Assembly (NCBI GenBank): GCA_016929295.1
Contig: JAFGJB010000008.1
Span: 12,917 to 76,916, forward strand
Length of the DNA stretch: 64,000 nucleotides
Source of the DNA: Candidatus Zhuqueibacterota bacterium
GTDB lineage: Bacteria; Zhuqueibacterota; Zhuqueibacteria; Residuimicrobiales; Krinioviventaceae
Direction of reading: 5' to 3'
This document shows positions 13,130 through 25,836 of this stretch, piece after piece (position 1 is the first letter of the stretch; every line of letters starts with the position of its first letter). The position numbers were made by a program, and so were the translations under genes. A model generated the notes under the pieces. It saw only the letters and a program-made list of their open reading frames with translations. It ran no database searches and had not been told where the DNA came from.

Positions 13130-13160
13130 GCTCGCATTTTACGCTGTAAATAGTATACCA

Positions 13161-13546
13161 AAGCAGGTCAGGCGATCGCGTTCTGCCTCGTCATACGAGG
13201 CGGGATGAGGAAAGTCCGAACTCCGCAGGGCAAGATGATCCGTAACGCGGATCCCGGGTGACCGGGGGAAAGTGCCACAGAAAATACACAGTCCTTTCCC
13301 GCATGGCGGGAGGGGATAAAGGTGAAATGGCGAGGTAAGAGCTCACCGCTTCAATGGTGACATTGGAGGCAGGGTAAACCCCATCTGGAGCAAGACCAAA
13401 TAGGCGGAAAGAGGCGGCCCGTCTCGACCGATCCGCGGGTAGGTTGCTTGAGGTGCCGGGCAATCGGCATCCTAGATAAATGATCGCCGTTCCGTCACGC
13501 GCTGCGGGATGGGATGACAGAATTCGGCTTATCGACCTGCTTTGGT
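13161..13546 (+). ncRNA. rnpB: RNase P RNA, bacterial type A
   Basis: P1 pairing AAGCAGGTC...GACCTGCTT. Conserved type-A blocks are GAGGAAAGTCCGAACTCC, GGTGAAATGGCGAGGTAAGAGCTCACC, AGCAAGACCAAATAGG, GGTAGGTTGCTTGAGGTGCCGGGCAATCGGCATCCTAGATAAATGATCG and ACAGAATTCGGCTTATCG. The minus-strand ORF 13191..13562 is an artefact of this RNA. Confidence 0.95.
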
Positions 13547-13591
13547 TATTTTTGATATTCAAATTGCCGACAGTCGGGAGCGCACAATAAT

Positions 13592-16744: not shown

Positions 16745-16776
16745 ATGCCGCTCCTGTATGAGCGGCATCTTTTTTG
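16745..16776 (+). terminator. Rho-independent terminator after nusB
   Basis: ATGCCGCTC-ctgtat-GAGCGGCAT followed by CTTTTTTGG. Confidence 0.75.
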
Positions 16777-16875
16777 GCCATCACAAAACTGCGGATGAGG
16801 GGAAACAATTCAGTTGATAGAGTGTTAAGATTGTTAGAGTTCTGGTGTGCGTAAAGGAATATGAAGGACTGTTAA

Positions 16876-19800
16876 ATGCTGGCAAAAGTTGAAAAAGTCT
16901 TGTCAAAAATAATGGGTGGATCGAGTAATGAACGCGAACTGAAGCGCCTGCAGCCGATCGTCGACGAGATCAACCAAATCGCTGCTGATTACGCGAAACT
17001 GACAGATGACGAGCTGAAAGCCAAAACGAACGAATTCCGCTATCGCCTTCTCATGGGAGAGACGCTGGATGATTTGCTGCCGGAAGCTTTTGCCGCGGTG
17101 AAGGATACGTGTCGGCGTCTGTGCGGCAAAAAATGGCTGGTGCGCGGTCAGGAAACAGACTGGAATATGATTCCATATGACGTTCAGCTGATCGGCGGCG
17201 TAGCGCTGCATGAAGGGAAAATCACGGAAATGGCAACGGGCGAAGGGAAGACGCTCGTCGCAACCATGCCTCTCTATCTGAATGCCCTGGCAGGCAAGGG
17301 CGCACATCTCATCACCGTGAACGATTATCTTGCTCAACGTGACTGCGAATGGATGGGCGAGATCTATAAATTTTTGGGGCTCTCGGTAGCCGCCATTTTT
17401 GGTCAGCAAGAGCCTGAGGAACGCAAGCGCGCCTACCAGGCCGATATTACTTATGGCACCAACAACGAGTTCGGATTTGATTATCTGCGCGATAATATGA
17501 CCGCGGATGTGTGGTCCGTGGTTCAACGTCCCCTGCACTTTGCTATTGTCGATGAGGTCGATAGTGTGCTCATTGATGAAGCCCGGACGCCTCTCATCAT
17601 CTCGGGCTCTGTCGGTGCACCACGGAATATCTATAATGAATTGAAACCCATCGTTGAAAATCTCTACAAAAAGCAGCAAGAGCTGGTCGTCCGCCTGATC
17701 AAAGAGGGTAAGGAACGACTCGAGCAGGACGAGGAGCAAGGGGGCCTGATGATACTGCGCGCACAGCGCGGGGATCCGAAAAATAGCCAGCTGCTGGAAT
17801 TGTTGACCTCTGAATTCTGGGTGAAAAAACTGATTGAAAGAATTCAAGGACAGTACGAGGTCAATAAGGATATGGCCACTGTCGACCAGGAACTCTATTA
17901 CACGATCGATGAAAAAAGCCATGTCGTCGATATAACCGAAAAAGGGCGCATATTTTTATCAGGCGGCCGCGATCAGGATGTCGCATTTAAAATTCAGCAA
18001 CTGGATGATCTGGACGAAATACTGTCGCGTCTCAGCGAGAGCAAGCAAAAATCACTCTACTTCACCCAGGATCCGGTGTCCGGCCGCTGCAACGGCCTCA
18101 GTTTTGCAGGTAAATTGGCGTTGAATAATGTTGCCGGCGACATAAATGAGCGCGACCGGGCTGCACTTGACGAGTTCGATGCCAGACTGCGACAGTTGCC
18201 CGATGTTGTGGAGAGAACCTCGCAGGAAAACAGGAGCGATCGAACATCAGCATGGCGGGCATTTTTCAGGATTGCCAAAAAAATGGAAAAGGCTGTCAAT
18301 GGCCTGACCGAGGAGGGAAAATCCTATCTGGCCAACGGACAAGATGGCGCCATGGCCAAACTGAGCGATTCTTTCGACAGACTTTTATCGACCATTTGCG
18401 CACAGGCGGATGTTGACAGCGGTCTGACGTTCCCGCGGCATCAACAAGAACGCCGGCGACTGCTGCAGGAGACTTTTTTTGAACTGGACAGACAACTGGG
18501 CATTCCTGTTGGTTTGACCGAGCAGGGTCGCATTGCCTTATTGGCCGACATGCTGGGAGGGGATCCATTGCGTGTACCGCTGATCTTTCAGCTTGACAAC
18601 ATGCTGCAGCTCGATGATGTCGATGACAAGATGCAGGATTATTTTGAATATTCCGATGACGGCACAGTGGTCAGACATATCGCGGAGAAAGGACGCATTG
18701 CGCTGCTCGGCGGTAACCCGGATACCTATGTTTTGCCGGATCGCAGCATCGTTGAGGAGCGGGACAGACAAATACAGCAGCTCTTGGACAGAACGATCAA
18801 TCAAACTTCCTACGATTATGCCGCACGAGTCATCGCCGTCGAACGCCTTGATCGCGACATGCGGGCTATTCATGATCTGCATGCGGCGGATGTGGAAAAA
18901 GCATCGCCTTTTTATATCATATCAAAATCAGAAGAGCGCCCGCGCATCCGTTTGACCGAAATGGGCCGCGCCTTTCTGTCCGATTTTGCAGCGCAAACCA
19001 CGGAGCTGGTGCTGCAGTTTGACAAACTTGTCCGCGACAATAAAAATCGCCTCGACGATATTTTCCAGGTGCAGAACAATAAAATTGTCGGCCTCAATTC
19101 GGCAGTGCTCGATCGTCTTCTCGGTCGATCTTTCAATGATCTGCAGCAAGCCATACGCGAATGGCACGCGCTGCATAAGGCGGGTGCTACTGATTCCAGC
19201 ATCAGCCTGCGTCTGGAATTGGACAAGTATCTCGGCAGCGACCAGGATGCCCGCAGCCTGTCGCGCACCTTCGAAGAGATCGAGCGCATTGCCCATGTCT
19301 ACAGTAACATTTTCGCCGTCATGCAGCGGCCAGATGTGAGCGACTCTGAAAAACGCCGCATTCTCGGTCGCTATTTTGAGTTTAACGGTGATCCAAAGGC
19401 TCCTTTCACGCAGGTGGATAATTTGCCGCTTGTCGGTCTGTCGGATGCCGGTATCGAACGCCTGGCAGGTGATGCCACGGCGCGGGCGCGCATATTTGAC
19501 AATCTGCAGGGGCTCGTCGATGATCTTGATGTTGATTCCGACGCAGTGTTTGAACTGTCAGAAGATGGTCATCCCGTGGGACTGAAAAAGTCTTCGTGGT
19601 CGCGACTTGTTGATGGTTTGCCATTTTTTAGCTACAGCGACGGACTGCGAAAATTTCGCGATGAGATCATGCATCTCTCTAATAAAAAGGTCAATTCCAG
19701 TTCTGAACTGGCGAGTCTGCTGCCAAAAGAAAAAACGCATCTACGGGCGAAAAAGCTCATGTTTGATGAACGTGAGCTGAATGAGTTGATTTCCATCGCC

Positions 19801-22800
19801 CATTCTCCATCGCGCGTTCTGACCGCCGAAGAAATCGAGCAGTGGTTCCGCTTGCAGTTTGAGCGTCAGCCCGGCCGTGTCCTGCAAGCCCGCCGGGATC
19901 GATTGTGGGCAAACTATCAGCAGGTTGAAGAGCGCATTCAGAATATATCACAACTGCTGCGGGCGTACACCCTCTATCACCGTGATGTCGAATATGTTGT
20001 CAAGACGCCGGAAGAAGGCGAGCTCCGCCGACACGGAGGAAGCCCGGGACAAAAGGCGGTCATGATTGTCGATAGTTTCACCGGACGTTTGATGCCGGGA
20101 CGACGATTCAGCGATGGCTTGCACGAGGCGCTCGAAGCCAAGGAGGGAGTTCAGGTTCAGGCGGAATCTCAAACATTGGCGACGATTACGCTGCAAAACT
20201 TTTTCAGATTGTATGATAAACTGGCCGGCATGACGGGCACTGCCGAAACCGAGGCGCAAGAGTTTTTCAGCACCTACAAACTCGAAGTGCTTGTCATTCC
20301 GACGAACGAGCCGGTCATTCGGATTGATCACAACGATGTCATATACCGCACACGACAGGAAAAGTTCAATGCCGTCATCGATGAAGCGCTTGAAATGCAC
20401 ACCAATGGCCGGCCGGTGTTGATCGGCACTATCTCCGTTGATGTCTCGCAACATCTCAGCAATCTCTTCGCTGCACGTGGCATTCCACTGGCCAACTGGC
20501 TGAAAAAAGGTGATGTGACCAAAGAACTCGAATCCGGTCGATTCCATACCGTGCTCAATGCCAAACATCACAAGAGCGAGGCCGAAATCGTCGCCAAGGC
20601 CGGATTGCCCGGCAGTATCACCATTGCCACCAATATGGCTGGTCGCGGCACGGACATCAAACTCAAAGAAGAAGTGGTCAAGAGAGGCGGTTTGCACATC
20701 ATCGGCTCTGAAAAGCACGAAGCACGGCGAATTGATCGACAGCTGCGCGGGCGCGCCGGTCGCCAGGGCGATCCGGGTTCATCCCGGTTTTATCTATCTC
20801 TTGAAGATGATCTCATGCGTCTCTTTGGTTCCGATCGCATCACAAATATCATGAGCAGCATGGGCTCGATGGAAGAGGGTGAACGCATCGAGCACAGCCT
20901 CATCACCCGATCCATCGAACGGGCGCAGAAAAAGGTCGAAGAGCGTAACTTTGAAATTCGTAAAAACCTGCTCGAATACGATGATGTGTTGAACGAACAG
21001 CGCAAGATCATCTACAAGCGGCGGCAAAATTTGCTCGGCTTTGCCCGCGCAGCGGACTATATCGAGTCCAAGTTGAAAAAGTTTGTCGAAGATGAGAATG
21101 ATCGCTCGACATGGAAATTGGCCGATTTGCTTGCTGATGTGCAAAAATACTTTGGCCGCTCGCCCGACGTGGCTGTTGATGAACTGGAACGACTCAAGTA
21201 TAGTGAACTTGCCGAGTTGCTGCAGGAGTGGGTCGCCGATCAGATTGAGGAGCGCCGCCATTTCAACCGGTTGCAAGAGCGGCACCGCATTTTTGGCTAT
21301 GCGTCCCCGGACGACGTGATCGAAAATCTCGTCAAATTGAAGATTCGACTCCACAGTGCCGGCACTACCGATACTTCGAAATGGAATGTTAAAGGCATCC
21401 GCTTCGAATTGGAACGAATTTTTAAAAAATCGCCGGATTGGCTGACGGGCGACCTGGGTCAGCACGCTCAGGTTGAAGATAGAATTAAAAAATGGGCGCG
21501 CGATGAATACGCCCAACAGATGTCCGAGGCGCGACAGGCAGTCGATGAAATTTTGCTTTCAGCCATTCCTTTCGACGATTTTCTGAATATTTTTGTCTTT
21601 GGTCTGATCAATTTGCATCTGCCGGCTGATCAGGCGCCGATCCATTGGCGCAGTGAAGAGTTTTTACGTGATCTCGAACGCATTTTCAATGCGCGGCCGA
21701 CCATCGGCCAAAACGAGATCAGATCCATTCGTCTCACAAAACTCGTCGCGATTCTTCGCGACTGGATTCAAACACTCGACCTGCCCCGTGATGAAACCGT
21801 CCTTCGCCATCGAATTGTGGGCTATTTTGGGCCGCTTCGATTGGTCGACGCCGTCATTGCAGAACGATTGTTTGAGCACGAGGCCGGCTCGGCGCAAGAA
21901 TTGACGACGGCCGATGCCGCCTATTTCAAAAGTTTATTCAATCACGATTTTCAGGTAGCGACCACCGGTCAAAATGAACGGCCGATCGTGCAGCTCTTCC
22001 GGCAGGCGCGCGAAGCCTATATGGCGCGCGTTCGCCATTCTCGCCAAGCTTATGACGACGCCATGATCGCCGGCGCGCTGTCAGAAGAGTTGATCGAAGC
22101 GGCGATCCATACCGTCATTGATGATATCTTGACATCCGCAGCAGATCAGACAGCGGCGCAGAAGGAACTGAGCTGGACGTTGGAAAATATGTTTCTGACC
22201 AAACCCATGATCTCCATACCGCAGCAGCGCGATGAGCAGACCATTGCCGTTTTTAAAGAAGATGTCGTCGCATGGGGGCATGCTTTTTATAAAATGTACT
22301 CCGATCGCATGGAGCGATTTCGCCAGGAAGAGTTGAGCAGCGAGATCGTCTCGGACTCGGTCATCGGCATGATCGACGACACGATCTATGCCATGATTGA
22401 CAATGTGCTCGGTGGGGATGATGTTCTTGACGCGGCGCAAATAAGTCGACTTGAGAGTGAATGCCGGCTGATTTTCCGGCAAACGCCCCGAATAGCAGAT
22501 GAGAGCTTGCAAGGTATGGATCCCAACAAAGTCATGGATCTGATCAGCGAATGGGCAAAAAATCTGTACTATCAACGTGTGCGAGAGCTGGGTCGAGAAC
22601 TGGTCACGCGAATGGAACGTTATTATGTCCTCGAAAAGATCGACGAAAATTGGCGTCAGCATCTGCACGGCGTGGACGAGCTCCGCGAAGGCATCGGCCT
22701 GCGAGGCTATGGCCAGAAAGATCCGCTGCTTGAATACAAGCGTGAGGCGTTTGTCATGTTCGAGCGTACCATTGACTCGATAAATCGAGAAACTGTGAGC

Positions 22801-23067
22801 ACATTGTTCAAGGTCTTTGATGTGGGGGGTGAAGTCGAAGAGCAGCAGTTGCGTCGCCTGGAGCCGCAAAGTTTCACAACATCGCACTCCCAGGTCGAGG
22901 TGTTCAGGCAGGTTATGTCCGAAAAGGCGCCGGCACGAAAACCAGCACCCGGCCCCACTGAACAAAGAACCCGCACGGTTGTCAAGACAAAGAGTGTGGG
23001 ACGAAACGAACCGTGTCCTTGTGGCAGCGGCAAAAAATACAAGAACTGCTGTGGCAGACATGTCTGA
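16876..23067 (+). CDS. secA: Preprotein translocase ATPase SecA, giant form (2063 aa) with large insertions
   Basis: Canonical NBD1 ([30 protein letters not shown]), NBD2 ([45 protein letters not shown]), IRA1 ([15 protein letters not shown]) and the C-terminal zinc motif [17 protein letters not shown]. About 660 extra aa lie between the [18 protein letters not shown] and [12 protein letters not shown], and about 400 extra aa lie in the helical wing domain. Confidence 0.9.
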
Positions 23068-23611: not shown

Positions 23612-23637
23612 ATCCCGTGCGCTCAAAGCCCTTGGAT

Positions 23638-25836
23638 ATGGCCAAATCGATTATATTAGTTGAATCACAACAAAAATTACGTACGCTACAATCGTATGTG
23701 GCCGATGATCATCACATCGTCAACATGAATGGCGCGATCGAGGATGCTGGAACTGAATATCTCCGGCATCTGCTCTTCAACCAGCCCGCCGAATTGGCTT
23801 TCTTGTCCGATAGCAAAATCGCCAGTCTGTCACAAATCATTCGTGACAGCGAAACGGTTCTACTCGCCACCTCACCCGATTACACCGGCGATGCCCTGGC
23901 GCGTCAAATCGTCAACGCCCTGCACCTCAAAGACAAGGACGTTCACCGACTCTTTTTACAGGCGATTTCGAAAAGAGAAGTGATCAAAGCGATTGGCGAG
24001 AAGCGAAACATACCCGCCGGCAGTGGCGCCTTGCTGGAAAAGTCTTTCGGAGTAGACAGCGCCTTCAACGACTATTTTCGCGATCTGATCAATTCGAAAA
24101 AAATAAAAAAACCCATTTTTAGCCTGGCCGCCGCATTGGCGCTTAGAAAAATATATGAAAATGATGCCGCGATGGCGAGCAGAACATCAACTTTGGCAAG
24201 TTCTCTTTGCATCCTTTTTAAGCGGCACGGCCGCTCTTTTACGGCGCGATTGAGCAAAATAAATGGCCAGACGCCGTCGATTGCCAATTCGCATGCGGCG
24301 AAAGCGATCATTTTTGATCTAAAAGAACAAAAGTACAAGATTGATCGGTTGTCGGACAGCACCATCACAACTGCACCGCCGCTGCCGTTCACAACAGCAA
24401 AATTGATCGCTGCAGCTGAAACACACCTTGGTTTTTCGCCTCGACAAACCTGCAGCATCGCCCGTTCTCTCTACAATGGTTGCGATATCGGACAGAAAAA
24501 GCCGGTTGGACTCATCACTTATCCGATAACGGATTCATTGTTCATCCCCGAGCAGGACCTATTGTCTGCCCGGGAGTTCATTATGGTGAATTATGGCAAA
24601 GCATACGTGCCGGAAAAGCCCCGCCTCTATTCAGATGCGTCATATTCTGCGTTCAGCGTTATTCGTCCCACCGCGCCATCGCGAACGCCTAAAAAATTGA
24701 AAAAGCATCTCGCCGACGGACCCTTTCAACTTTATGATCTCATTTGGAAACGCTTCCTGGCATCGCAAATGACAGATTCGACCATGGCGCATCGAAAAGT
24801 GTACATCACCGCAGGACCGCAAAAGGCCTATGTTTTTCGACTTGAACAAATCCAAACGATGGGCCGGGGATATCTGCAGCTCTTTCCGCAGACAGAGAAC
24901 CAAACGTCATTTTTATTTTCACAAGAATGGCAAAAGAATGGCGAAATCATCCCTTGTGATTATAAATATGTTGTCGAACAGCACAAGTCAGATTTTTATT
25001 ATACTGAAGGCAGATTGTTGGAAGCATTGGGCGATTTGGATGTGTGCATGATCGAGACGCTCGAGTACATACCCGATATTTTGCGCGAGTGGAAATTTGT
25101 CCGCCAAACTGCTGACGGCAAATTATATCCGACGCGACCGGGAAAGACTGCCTGCGAGTTGCTGCAACGGCGCTATCCGGATATTCTGAATGAACGGTTC
25201 ATACGCCAGCAAAAAGCAAAGTTATTTATGCTGGAGAACGGAAAAAAGAATATCGATCCTGTGGCTGAAATCACAAAATTATTACAACATCCGGCACGAC
25301 CGACAATGGAGGACCAGGCAGCAGATGGCGCCGTGAAAAAAACCAACAGCAAATGTCCTGTTTGTGGTGGCTCGATGCTGCAAAAAAGCAGCTCATCCGG
25401 TGACTATATGGTCTGTGAATTTTATCCCGATAACTGCCAGTACAGCAAATCGATTCATCCTCACCTGCATCGCTATTATGGGCGCTGCGATGACTGCCAT
25501 GCTGAACTGACTGTTAAAATCGGCCGTTATGGTCGATTCCTGGCGTGTTCTGCTTTTCCAAAATGCAAGTTCACCAGGCCATTTCCGACTGGCGCCAAAT
25601 GTCCCAGAGAAGGCTGCGAGGGAGATGTGATAGAACGGATCACAAAAACGGGTCGACTTTTTTACGGATGCAGCTTATTCCCGCACTGCAAATTTTCATC
25701 CTGGCAAATGCCGGTGAACATTGCCTGTCCAAAGTGCGGCAATCTCTATTTGACATTAAAAAACAGCGATGCTTTTGACGTTTATCAATGTCCCAAGTGC
25801 AAGACTGAATTTGACGCCAATCTGGCGGAAAAATGA
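23638..25836 (+). CDS. topA: Type IA DNA topoisomerase I homologue with four C-terminal C4 zinc ribbons; several catalytic-site residues diverge
   Basis: Toprim [14 protein letters not shown] and [11 protein letters not shown] versus E. coli IYLATDLDREGE. Active-site [10 protein letters not shown] versus GYITYMRTDS. IRP and [14 protein letters not shown] are conserved. An alternative GTG start is at 23617. Confidence 0.75.

Follow-up and report, generated by a model that had tools for sequence, protein, structure and literature searches.

The canonical SecA proteins of E. coli (901 aa) and B. subtilis (841 aa, PDB 1tf2 and 1m6n) and the long SecA proteins of the FCB group (PRK12901 type, approximately 1050–1195 aa, with 1136 aa in Rhodothermus marinus and 1050–1142 aa in KSB1) are the closest described systems to the protein analyzed here, a giant SecA of 2063 aa encoded in a 64,000-nucleotide stretch of DNA (the window). 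All domains and motifs of canonical SecA are also present in the giant SecA, which differs by approximately 1066 aa of repeat arrays, a helical insertion of FCB type (approximately 73 aa) and small insertions in NBD1 (13 aa), PPXD (12 aa) and NBD2 (19 aa). It shares its motor with the long FCB-group SecA (44–58% identity across the core segments that align), and both also have the helical insertion at the PPXD start, a zinc finger and, behind the hairpin, the ‘FVLPD’ element, but the FCB-group proteins carry a single hairpin module in the PPXD and a single wing unit compared to nine and six in the giant SecA. In the KSB1 relatives the long SecA is located at the same chromosomal locus.

Conserved inserts in the ATPase domain have been described for SecA from thermophiles, with 50 aa in Thermotogales/Aquificales and 76 aa in Thermales (Khadka, Persaud & Gupta 2019, PMC7023208). 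They resemble the giant arrays in being clade-specific, vertically inherited and surface-exposed in an otherwise conserved SecA. They differ in size (50–76 aa versus 636 and 430 aa) and location (ATPase domain versus PPXD and wing), and the abstract makes no mention of repeats, whereas the giant SecA contains duplicated native modules. Like the giant SecA, the accessory SecA2 proteins, for example those of C. difficile (6sxh) and M. tuberculosis (4uaq), belong to the SecA-family motors whose domains on the substrate side have been remodelled. SecA2 proteins are shorter than the giant SecA and some of them lack the wing domain. They are paralogues encoded at a separate locus, whereas the giant SecA fails all SecA2 cut-offs and occupies the housekeeping locus.

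The gene belongs to an uncultured bacterium of KSB1 (Candidatus Zhuqueibacterota, FCB group) and very likely codes for its housekeeping motor of protein export, SecA, present at a single locus and with arrays formed by serial in-place duplication. The protein has double the length of a usual SecA, as two small native building blocks have been multiplied serially to nine and six copies, respectively.

One open reading frame with all SecA domains

The secA gene covers positions 16876..23067 of the window (plus strand, as all features below, stop codon included) and is a single ORF of 2063 aa with an ATG start and no internal stop. The initial annotation had described a giant SecA in an unbroken frame whose motor motifs and zinc finger are intact, and indeed all SecA domains and motifs are found within this one ORF, with Pfam matches to SecA_DEAD (best stretch aa 15–287), SecA_PP_bind (aa 1015–1087 only, corresponding to profile positions 52–110), P-loop_SecA (beginning at aa 1146), SecA_SW (aa 1816–1980) and SEC-C (aa 2043–2061). 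The protein passes the NCBIfam SecA equivalog model PRK12904 (977.6 bits, cut-off 814) as well as the SecA equivalog TIGR00963 (908.4 bits, cut-off 800). For PRK12901 it scores 1089.9 bits at a cut-off of 1493, and all SecA2 models stay below their own cut-offs.

The ATPase motor (NBD1, NBD2), the scaffold helix, the two-helix finger and the zinc finger are canonical. NBD1 (16876..17667, aa 1–264) is a DEAD-like motor domain (Walker A, ‘MATGEGKT’; Walker B, ‘VDEVDS’) and shows the 13-aa insertion relative to B. subtilis SecA. It is followed by the helical insertion at the PPXD start (17668..17886, aa 265–337), which also occurs in mid-size SecAs (1050–1195 aa) of related FCB-group lineages and is therefore not specific to the giant form. 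Pfam and the alignment to B. subtilis SecA locate the canonical C-terminal PPXD half, NBD2 with its motifs and the long scaffold helix at 19891..21048 (aa 1006–1391) and IRA1 with the two-helix finger at 22600..22845 (aa 1909–1990), and Pfam places the C-terminal linker and SEC-C zinc finger at 22846..23064 (aa 1991–2063).

In the alignment to 1tf2, aa 18–265, 1023–1405 and 1877–2061 correspond to B. subtilis residues 15–249, 292–639 and 678–842, and therefore the PPXD site holds approximately 715 aa compared to 43 and the wing site approximately 470 aa compared to 39. The two long spacings noted in the initial annotation could be confirmed with approximately 670 aa between ITEKGR (aa 353–358) and the downstream strand (aa 1031) and 528 aa between the motif at aa 1378–1387 and the IRA1 motif (aa 1915). 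In-silico removal of aa 370–1005 and 1392–1821 resulted in a 997-aa protein showing a single contiguous alignment to B. subtilis SecA 241–842, and the bit score increased from 711.6 to 726.6.

Repeat arrays in the PPXD and the helical wing domain

The excess in the PPXD, approximately 636 aa, arose by serial duplication, as initially proposed: an element native to the PPXD is present as nine β-hairpin+helix modules (U1–U9), diverged internal repeats of each other. Module U1 (17887..18048, aa 338–391, AF2 strands at aa 342–345 and 350–353) represents the canonical hairpin found in the PPXD bulb (‘YxxDEKxxxVxLTExG’) and aligns to B. subtilis ‘DYTYDIKTKAVQLTEEG’, the first β-hairpin and helix of the bulb. 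The initial annotation had counted five copies, all of which are real (U1, U4, U5, U6 and U8), and U2, U3, U7 and U9 complete the total of nine. It had also likened the repeat to the PPXD stem and proposed serial duplication of the clamp element. The native origin and the serial duplication hold, but the repeat is the bulb hairpin+helix and lies outside the substrate-binding stem and clamp strand, so that a duplicated clamp element is unsupported. In the structure prediction, nine hairpin+helix modules are seen with good confidence (AF2 model of aa 225–1110, pLDDT 80.8, most 10-residue blocks of the insert above 85).

Using hhalign with sub-alignments of the 45-sequence family, 13 of the 36 PPXD pairs reached a probability of at least 50% and eight of at least 90%, the best with 96.5% and in register. 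U2 (18049..18252, aa 392–459) matches U1 (96.5%), U3 (94.7%) and U4 (94.7%), while U3 (18253..18465, aa 460–530) also matches U1 (92.7%), U8 (94.6%) and U6 (89.9%). Further matches connect U4 (18466..18630, aa 531–585) with U5 (95.0%), U6 (18901..19050, aa 676–725) with U1 (92.7%) and U8 (19363..19536, aa 830–887) with U2 (67.7%), and U2, U3, U4, U6 and U8 are all modelled as hairpin+helix by AF2. U5 (18631..18900, aa 586–675), also identified by hhalign, harbours the most conserved island of the insert (aa 601–650, 78% identity to the query), and its tail resembles the sequence directly after the single hairpin of mid-size orthologs (‘NDPEMFVLPD’). U7 (19051..19362, aa 726–829, strands at aa 730–733 and 736–740) and U9 (19537..19875, aa 888–1000, a hairpin followed by helices) were assigned mainly from the AF2 model because their hhalign probabilities are weak and do not exceed 60% (U7–U9 60%, U4–U9 40%, U4–U7 31%).

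HMMs built from single-module motifs also match other modules at the correct positions. None of the reversed-alignment controls reached 50% (0/72 for the PPXD and 0/30 for the wing, 0/102 in total), and no PPXD module matched any wing unit with an hhalign probability above 13%. From the 76 matches of non-giant length among those listed (P0045–P0120), 73 contain one site for the U1 HMM and three contain two. For the PPXD insert itself no relative was detectable outside the giant SecA family among 1.84 billion representative proteins.

The helical wing domain had been recognized as greatly expanded, and this expansion is a regular tandem array, overlooked in the initial annotation, of six units (A–F) of approximately 86 aa each, the last one being the canonical unit. 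The increase from one to six units adds approximately 430 aa. Nine of the 15 pairs showed an hhalign probability of at least 50% and five of at least 90%, with a top value of 98.8%, in register. This is the match between unit A (21049..21300, aa 1392–1475) and unit C (21565..21828, aa 1564–1651; E 9e-17), and A also matches unit B (21301..21564, aa 1476–1563) with 96.8%. Unit B in turn matches D (21829..22077, aa 1652–1734; 96.0%), F (95.5%) and C (92.8%), followed by D–F (78.1%) and, for unit E (22078..22338, aa 1735–1821), C–E (71.7%) and E–F (59.7%). In the protein shortened in silico, unit F (22339..22599, aa 1822–1908) is aligned with the wing domain of B. subtilis SecA. The likeness of A, C and E on the one hand and of B, D and F on the other suggests that a two-unit block may have been duplicated within the array. 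The single wing unit of mid-size orthologs is matched by each of the HMMs for A, B, C and F, and the AF2 model of the wing region is all-helical and confident (pLDDT 86.3, pTM 0.79).

Distribution and origin of the giant form

Relatives of the giant SecA form 44 protein clusters (90% identity) of 2049–2111 aa covering 100% of the query, and any 50-aa window of their alignment has at most 7% gaps. The synteny RecJ–aminotransferase (AT4)–NusB–SecA–Smg–(TopA)–Xer was found in 31 species-level MAGs, and this order is kept at every locus long enough to show it. In these species-representative genomes every ORF uncut by a contig end has approximately 2060–2110 aa between stops, apart from one of 2166 aa, which is probably counted with upstream codons. 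One of the giant genes lies on a 6.5-Mb chromosome and another on a contig of 2.45 Mb.

SecAs of 1142, 1050 and 1056 aa, from an outgroup contig without label and from two MAGs listed at NCBI as KSB1/Zhuqueibacterota, are embedded in this gene order as well. Each of them has one hairpin and one wing unit, and the genes on either side show a greater distance to the window than those of any giant-clade genome. As the locus is shared, the giant form is therefore a positional ortholog that was expanded in place in a subclade. The expansion took place in the ancestral gene at its own locus, from one to nine modules in the PPXD and from one to six units in the wing, after the split from the KSB1-labelled lineages with a SecA of 1050–1142 aa and before the radiation of at least 31 species, and copy number and length have remained fixed ever since.

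A literature search revealed no paper on a giant repeat-array SecA, and the double repeat-array architecture appears to be new to the literature. The novelty claimed in the initial annotation is nevertheless weakened because giant SecAs are universal in the lineage (44 clusters, 31 genomes), and several of these proteins are already named ‘preprotein translocase subunit SecA’ at JGI. Annotation pipelines often split or misname the gene: NCBI names are ‘SEC-C domain-containing protein’, ‘DEAD/DEAH box helicase, partial’ or ‘hypothetical protein’, and some NCBI records give only a C-terminal piece as protein. The only piece of this genome's gene in the protein collection is MBN1558663.1, the C-terminal 515 aa identical to aa 1549–2063. 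C-terminal-only records also exist for two other MAGs, and the internal start varies from record to record (pieces of 515, 537 and 348 aa), in line with genes being called by homology to reference SecAs of 800–1100 aa.

Selection, alternative explanations and possible role

Eleven pairs with dS below 2 gave dN/dS values of 0.02–0.08 for the core, 0.05–0.26 for the PPXD array and 0.06–0.30 for the wing array. Both arrays are under purifying selection, which makes a functional protein very probable, in agreement with the functional translocase proposed initially.

Extreme length and a metagenome-assembled source genome are what one would expect from a tandem-duplication mis-assembly or a chimeric contig inflating a normal secA. 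However, direct repeats in the DNA of the gene are limited to three chance matches of 20–34 nt, TRF found nothing relevant, and the self-BLAST of the protein shows no repeat, so the copies must be ancient. As the colinear architecture recurs in 44 protein clusters and in the genomes of 31 species, each assembled independently, and dN/dS is far below 1 in both arrays, this explanation, already considered in the initial annotation, can be rejected for practical purposes. Inteins are a frequent cause of large in-frame insertions in essential ATPases, but insertion of an intein, a mobile element or a foreign domain has a negligible probability: as initially stated there is no intein among the Pfam matches, nor a Hint or endonuclease match (E ≤ 0.01 for the whole protein, E ≤ 1 for the insert), the inserted sequence is homologous to the hairpin and wing units of SecA itself, and the GC content is flat across the gene (approximately 0.50–0.54 in its interior). 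The C-terminal-only NCBI records (MBN1558663.1 here and those of two other MAGs) might reflect two or more polypeptides, for example a product starting at Met1549. This is highly improbable given the inconsistent internal starts, the open frame over aa 1–2063 here and approximately 2060–2110 aa in 26 other loci, and the full-length gene called by other pipelines. Moreover, two chains divided at aa 1549 would leave the scaffold helix on one and IRA1 plus the two-helix finger on the other, although canonical SecA requires these elements within a single polypeptide.

That the protein is a specialised, SecA2-like paralogue exporting a special set of substrates beside a normal SecA appears very unlikely. 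Accessory SecAs with altered PPXD or wing are known from other phyla, the SecA2 structures 6sxh and 4uaq are among the PDB matches, and KSB1-labelled SecAs of approximately 1050 aa exist. However, those examined (1050–1056 aa) sit at the same RecJ–AT4–NusB–SecA–Smg–TopA–Xer locus in more distant genomes and are therefore orthologs of other lineages and not co-resident paralogues. None of the 120 best matches listed is a normal-size SecA with a KSB1 label, the SecA equivalogs are passed and the SecA2 models are not, and the neighbourhood consists of housekeeping genes with no accessory-Sec genes at the locus. The arrays could also be tolerated structural bloat, fixed by drift and constrained only for folding without any added activity. 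They evolve 3–5 times faster than the core, lack conserved motifs of catalytic appearance and are without homologs elsewhere, and the wing domain is missing from some SecA2 proteins and so seems to tolerate change. We regard this as unlikely, since dN/dS is 0.05–0.30 across more than 1000 residues, approximately 3.2 kb of extra coding sequence is costly in an essential and abundant protein, and no clade member has lost any unit: RecJ identity drops to 63% across the giant clade, yet copy number and length of the arrays are invariant.

As a housekeeping SecA with arrays formed by in-place duplication, the protein would use its motor as any SecA for the ATP-driven passage of preproteins through SecYEG, and the two arrays would extend both mobile domains flanking the preprotein-binding region into large folded surfaces. 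Most plausibly, unfolded preproteins or partner proteins would bind to these surfaces, which would serve SecA as integral docking or holdase platforms. SecA has doubled in size by means of its native modules, and selection has retained the result throughout a sub-lineage.

A SecA with two clean insertions

The giant secA is located at positions 16876–23067 of the window (+ strand), starts with ATG and comprises 2063 codons without an internal stop. A Pfam search, as proposed in the initial annotation, recovered all SecA domains in the product: the N-terminal DEAD-like motor domain NBD1 (SecA_DEAD, E 1.8e-122), in which the Walker A motif ‘MATGEGKT’ and the Walker B motif ‘VDEVDS’ can be read in the translation, NBD2/IRA2 (P-loop_SecA, E 6.4e-70) with helicase motifs V and VI (arginine finger), the scaffold, wing and IRA1 two-helix finger region (SecA_SW, aa 1816–1980, E 2.3e-60) and the zinc-binding SEC-C motif (PF02810, aa 2043–2061, E 4.1e-09). 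The preprotein cross-linking domain (PPXD), which is inserted into NBD1, was matched by SecA_PP_bind only at aa 1015–1087, corresponding to the C-terminal half of the profile (E 4.8e-20). The NCBIfam equivalog cut-offs for SecA are cleared (PRK12904 977.6 vs 814, TIGR00963 908.4 vs 800), and the top-scoring model is PRK12901 for the long FCB-type SecA with 1089.9 bits over four stretches, which is below its cut-off of 1493. By every sequence criterion tested the giant protein is a SecA family member and, judged from its motifs and domains, its motor is intact. A second secA copy is not present within the 64-kb window.

Aligned to SecA from Bacillus subtilis, the protein shows three matching blocks (query 18–265, 1023–1405 and 1877–2061), with ~715 aa in the first gap vs 43 in B. 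subtilis and ~470 vs 39 in the second. Removing aa 370–1005 and 1392–1821 in silico gave a 997-aa protein with one single unbroken alignment to B. subtilis SecA 241–842, the score rising from 711.6 to 726.6 bits. At the level of sequence the excess is thus two clean insertions, and compared to all described SecAs the giant SecA carries ~1066 aa of internal repeat arrays in addition. The coordinates and distances given in the initial annotation were all correct, as were the five motif copies listed there. Its interpretation of the repeats as a duplicated ‘clamp’ element is not supported: in the array-deleted protein the hairpin of U1, the canonical PPXD module, pairs with B. subtilis ‘DYTYDIKTKAVQLTEEG’ (residues in the 250s–260s), which we take to be the first β-hairpin of the PPXD bulb and not the two-stranded stem at the back of the clamp. 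Extra ‘clamp’ elements are unsupported because the duplicated unit is this bulb hairpin and not the substrate-binding stem. In the same alignment aa 1822–1908 pair with the canonical wing domain of B. subtilis.

The PPXD array was modelled with AlphaFold2 (aa 225–1110, with a 45-sequence family alignment as input), resulting in a mean pLDDT of 80.8 and values >85 in most 10-residue blocks of the insert. The model contains nine copies of one element (U1–U9), each a β-hairpin followed by a short helix and one to two longer helices, with the hairpins starting near aa 342, 396, 464, 535, 590, 680, 730, 834 and 892, so that the PPXD repeats themselves stand and number nine, where the initial annotation had listed at least five. 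An alignment of the hairpins gives the common pattern aromatic-aromatic-x-hydrophobic ... hydrophobic-x-[GL]-[LI]-[TS]-[ED]-x-G-[RK]-x-x-L. Profile–profile comparison of the modules, using sub-alignments of the giant SecA family, gave in-register links for U1–U2 (96.5%), U1–U3 (92.7%), U1–U5 (93.3%), U1–U6 (92.7%), U2–U3 (94.7%), U2–U4 (94.7%), U3–U8 (94.6%) and U4–U5 (95.0%), and a probability of ≥50% was reached by 13 of the 36 real pairs vs none of 72 in a reversed-alignment control. U7 and U9 are weakly linked to the other modules (U7–U9 60%) and are predicted as modules mainly from the structural model. Pfam searches for relatives of the PPXD insert and of the single modules gave sub-threshold noise only, and Foldseek found nothing below E = 0.2 for the array model in the PDB.

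In the wing region, six units of ~86 aa follow one another in a regular tandem array, namely A (aa 1392–1475), B (1476–1563), C (1564–1651), D (1652–1734), E (1735–1821) and the canonical F (1822–1908). Here 9 of 15 real pairs vs 0 of 30 reversed-alignment controls reached ≥50% probability, the pairs being A–C (98.8%, E 9e-17), A–B (96.8%), B–D (96.0%), B–F (95.5%), D–F (78%) and C–E (72%) among others. Similarity follows an A/C/E vs B/D/F pattern, which suggests duplication of a two-unit block. The AlphaFold2 model of aa 1320–2010 is all-helical with good confidence (pLDDT 86.3, pTM 0.79), and its significant fold matches in the PDB are SecA structures only, covering about one third of the model. 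Between the two arrays, the best match of a PPXD module to any wing unit is ≤13%.

Reality, distribution and annotation of the giant SecA

An assembly artefact in the form of a tandem-duplication mis-assembly had been raised as a possibility in the initial annotation. We found no tandem DNA repeats in the gene and, beyond three chance matches of 20–34 nt, no DNA repeats at all, and the GC content is flat along it. Even protein self-BLAST did not detect the repeats, which became visible only with profile methods and the AlphaFold2 model; therefore, the copies must be old. Searching 5.8 billion proteins revealed 44 clusters (90% identity) of 2049–2111 aa that cover 100% of the query at 54–74% identity, and the inserts are colinear across the family alignment with gaps of ≤7% per 50-aa window. 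Per window, identity to the query is 22–58% in the inserts (one conserved island excepted) and ~70–90% in the motor domains. When species-representative genomes were scanned with two peptide patterns specific to the inserts, 31 giant secA loci were identified, a count that is a lower bound. In the eleven pairs with dS <2, dN/dS is 0.02–0.08 for the core, 0.05–0.26 for the PPXD array and 0.06–0.30 for the wing array. Taken together, the lack of DNA repeats, the 44 colinear clusters, the ≥31 loci and the low dN/dS led us to reject the artefact. An intein was rejected as well, as no Pfam match to Hint/intein splicing or homing endonuclease domains was obtained in the whole protein (E ≤ 0.01) or in the insert and the nine units (E ≤ 1). 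A SecA2-type paralogue would likewise belong to the family, and it was rejected since all SecA2 models stay under their cut-offs (TIGR03714 645 of 930, TIGR04221 526.5 of 725, TIGR04397 776.5 of 1085, NF012136 548.9 of 1100) and the gene shares its housekeeping locus with normal-length SecAs. A gene fusion as origin was also considered and rejected.

Giant-clade ORFs not cut by contig ends have a length of ~2060–2110 aa between stops, with one of 2166 that probably includes upstream codons. The 2070-aa ORF in L003 (JAACEJ010000028.1) ends with ‘...SQSGTNQGGRRA’, while all other full-length orthologs end in the SEC-C zinc finger; the finger may truly have been lost in L003, or a terminal frameshift may be responsible. 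Using the PPXD insert as query for phmmer against 1.84 billion proteins (one representative per 50%-identity cluster), we obtained five proteins, of which one is a full-length giant SecA and the others are fragments. On this basis the insert is confined to the giant SecA family and does not occur in other types of protein. The wing array as query returned five C-terminal fragment records only and no full-length family members, which are probably missing through candidate selection, making this search uninformative on intermediate forms, although it brought the split annotations to light. Among the SecA matches no intermediate copy numbers were seen: matches of 1310 and 1429 aa are both partial genes, and one of 1422 aa, with a GIDA-family Pfam match, probably represents a fused gene call.

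The sequences of giant SecAs are already public. From the gene in the window, the only piece found in the protein collection is MBN1558663.1 (NCBI, 515 aa), which is 100% identical to aa 1549–2063 (window 21520–23067), starts at the internal Met1549 and is labelled ‘SEC-C domain-containing protein [candidate division KSB1 bacterium]’. Neither the 2063-aa product nor this fragment led to a gene on record in an exact-protein look-up. Two other MAGs (L004 and L002) have C-terminal-only records of 537 and 348 aa despite continuous ORFs, so that at least three MAGs are represented by such a piece, a probable artefact of gene calling guided by homology to normal-length SecAs. Several giant SecAs are labelled SecA by JGI; the names at NCBI are ‘SEC-C domain-containing protein’, ‘DEAD/DEAH box helicase, partial’ or ‘hypothetical protein’. 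Because these names omit SecA and some records are C-terminal only, pathway and completeness surveys of these genomes can wrongly score SecA as missing or fragmented. The genomes of L001, L002, L003, L008, L016–L019, L026–L028 and L030 are labelled ‘uncultured Cytophagia’, ‘Calditrichaeota/Calditrichota’ or ‘Actinomycetota’, taxon labels that look unreliable.

Possible role of the arrays

Few bacterial machines are as conserved and as well studied as SecA, yet what its PPXD bulb and helical wing domain do is still debated. We could show that both arrays are folded, selected, fixed in copy number and made from SecA's own PPXD-bulb and wing modules. The giant SecA would be the cell's SecA, using ATP to drive preproteins through SecYEG, and the arrays would lengthen two mobile domains flanking the preprotein-binding region. 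Most plausibly, they would give unfolded substrates or partners additional surface on which to dock or be held. Both arrays are mildly acidic, as is the remainder of the protein. A far-reaching idea, which we regard as rather unlikely, is that the arrays are functional additions turning SecA into a motor with a built-in multivalent preprotein-handling platform. In that case an elongated surface or channel toward the clamp would be lined by the nine PPXD-bulb modules together with the six wing units, where long unfolded substrates might be held by a built-in holdase in place of a SecB-type chaperone, or the arrays might reach the ribosome exit for co-translational capture. If true, such a platform would represent a hitherto unknown design of export motor and would serve as a natural experiment on the contributions of bulb and wing domain.

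An essential motor has here reached twice its size through copies of two of its own sub-domain modules, with every copy kept under selection by a whole uncultured sub-lineage. This makes the giant SecA a clean example of domain growth via internal module duplication in an essential gene and offers a natural way to approach what the PPXD bulb and the wing domain do, and its architecture would surprise a Sec specialist. Lineage-specific inserts of 50 and 76 aa have been described in the ATPase domain of SecA, in an abstract that does not present them as repeats (PMC7023208), and the paper naming the phylum Zhuqueibacterota mentions neither SecA nor secretion (PMC11683472). Literature searches on giant or long SecA, SecA insertions and SecA in KSB1/Zhuqueibacterota yielded nothing on a double-array architecture.

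The secA locus and the origin of the arrays

In the window the giant secA of this KSB1 (Candidatus Zhuqueibacterota) genome, a lineage within the FCB group, follows the housekeeping genes for RNase P RNA, RecJ, a class IV aminotransferase and NusB, and precedes those for Smg/DUF494, TopA and a XerC/D-type recombinase. This gene order is kept in all 31 loci as far as the contigs reach, and the identical order flanks SecAs of normal FCB length in three loci: P0051 (1142 aa, unlabelled ENA contig), P0241 (1050 aa, GCA_034506335.1) and P0239 (1056 aa, GCA_049322915.1), the latter two with the NCBI taxon label KSB1/Zhuqueibacterota and the product name ‘preprotein translocase subunit SecA’. Each of the three has a single PPXD hairpin followed directly by ‘NDPEMFVLPD’ or ‘NPELFILPD’, the element found directly after U5 in the giant SecA, and a single wing unit, where several unit HMMs of the giant array match at the same position. 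Their flanking genes resemble those of the window less than the flanks in any giant-clade genome do, with identities of 57–60% vs 63–85% for RecJ, 42–52% vs 50–72% for NusB and 25–31% vs 43–75% for Smg. The shared locus, the single hairpin and wing unit and the more distant flanks therefore identify the giant secA as a positional ortholog of the ordinary long FCB-type secA. The arrays arose in place, in the ancestor of a KSB1 subclade. The ancestral single PPXD module is split, one half being the N-terminal flank of U1 and the other the C-terminal tail of U5.

The class A RNase P RNA lies directly upstream of recJ at window 13160–13547 (+) and is full length (RF00010, 306.6 bits). Between nusB (end 16725) and secA (start 16876) a GC-rich hairpin ‘GCCGCTC...GAGCGGC’ followed by ‘TTTTTT’ (window ~16745–16781, +) looks like an intrinsic terminator, and because of this putative terminator 3' of nusB an own promoter for secA would be suggested. 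TopA of the window (23617–25836, +) shares only 24–36% identity with its positional counterpart in most giant-clade loci (L006–L027 compared), its neighbours in these loci showing 50–75%, and several loci have no TopA match between Smg and Xer; some members of the giant clade may have lost or replaced topA. Downstream of xer, three loci with normal-size SecA (L032, L034 and L036) encode a ribosome hibernation factor (Ribosomal_S30AE) and HPr kinase, and in L034 and L036 only the block also continues into mannose-type PTS IIA/IIB components.
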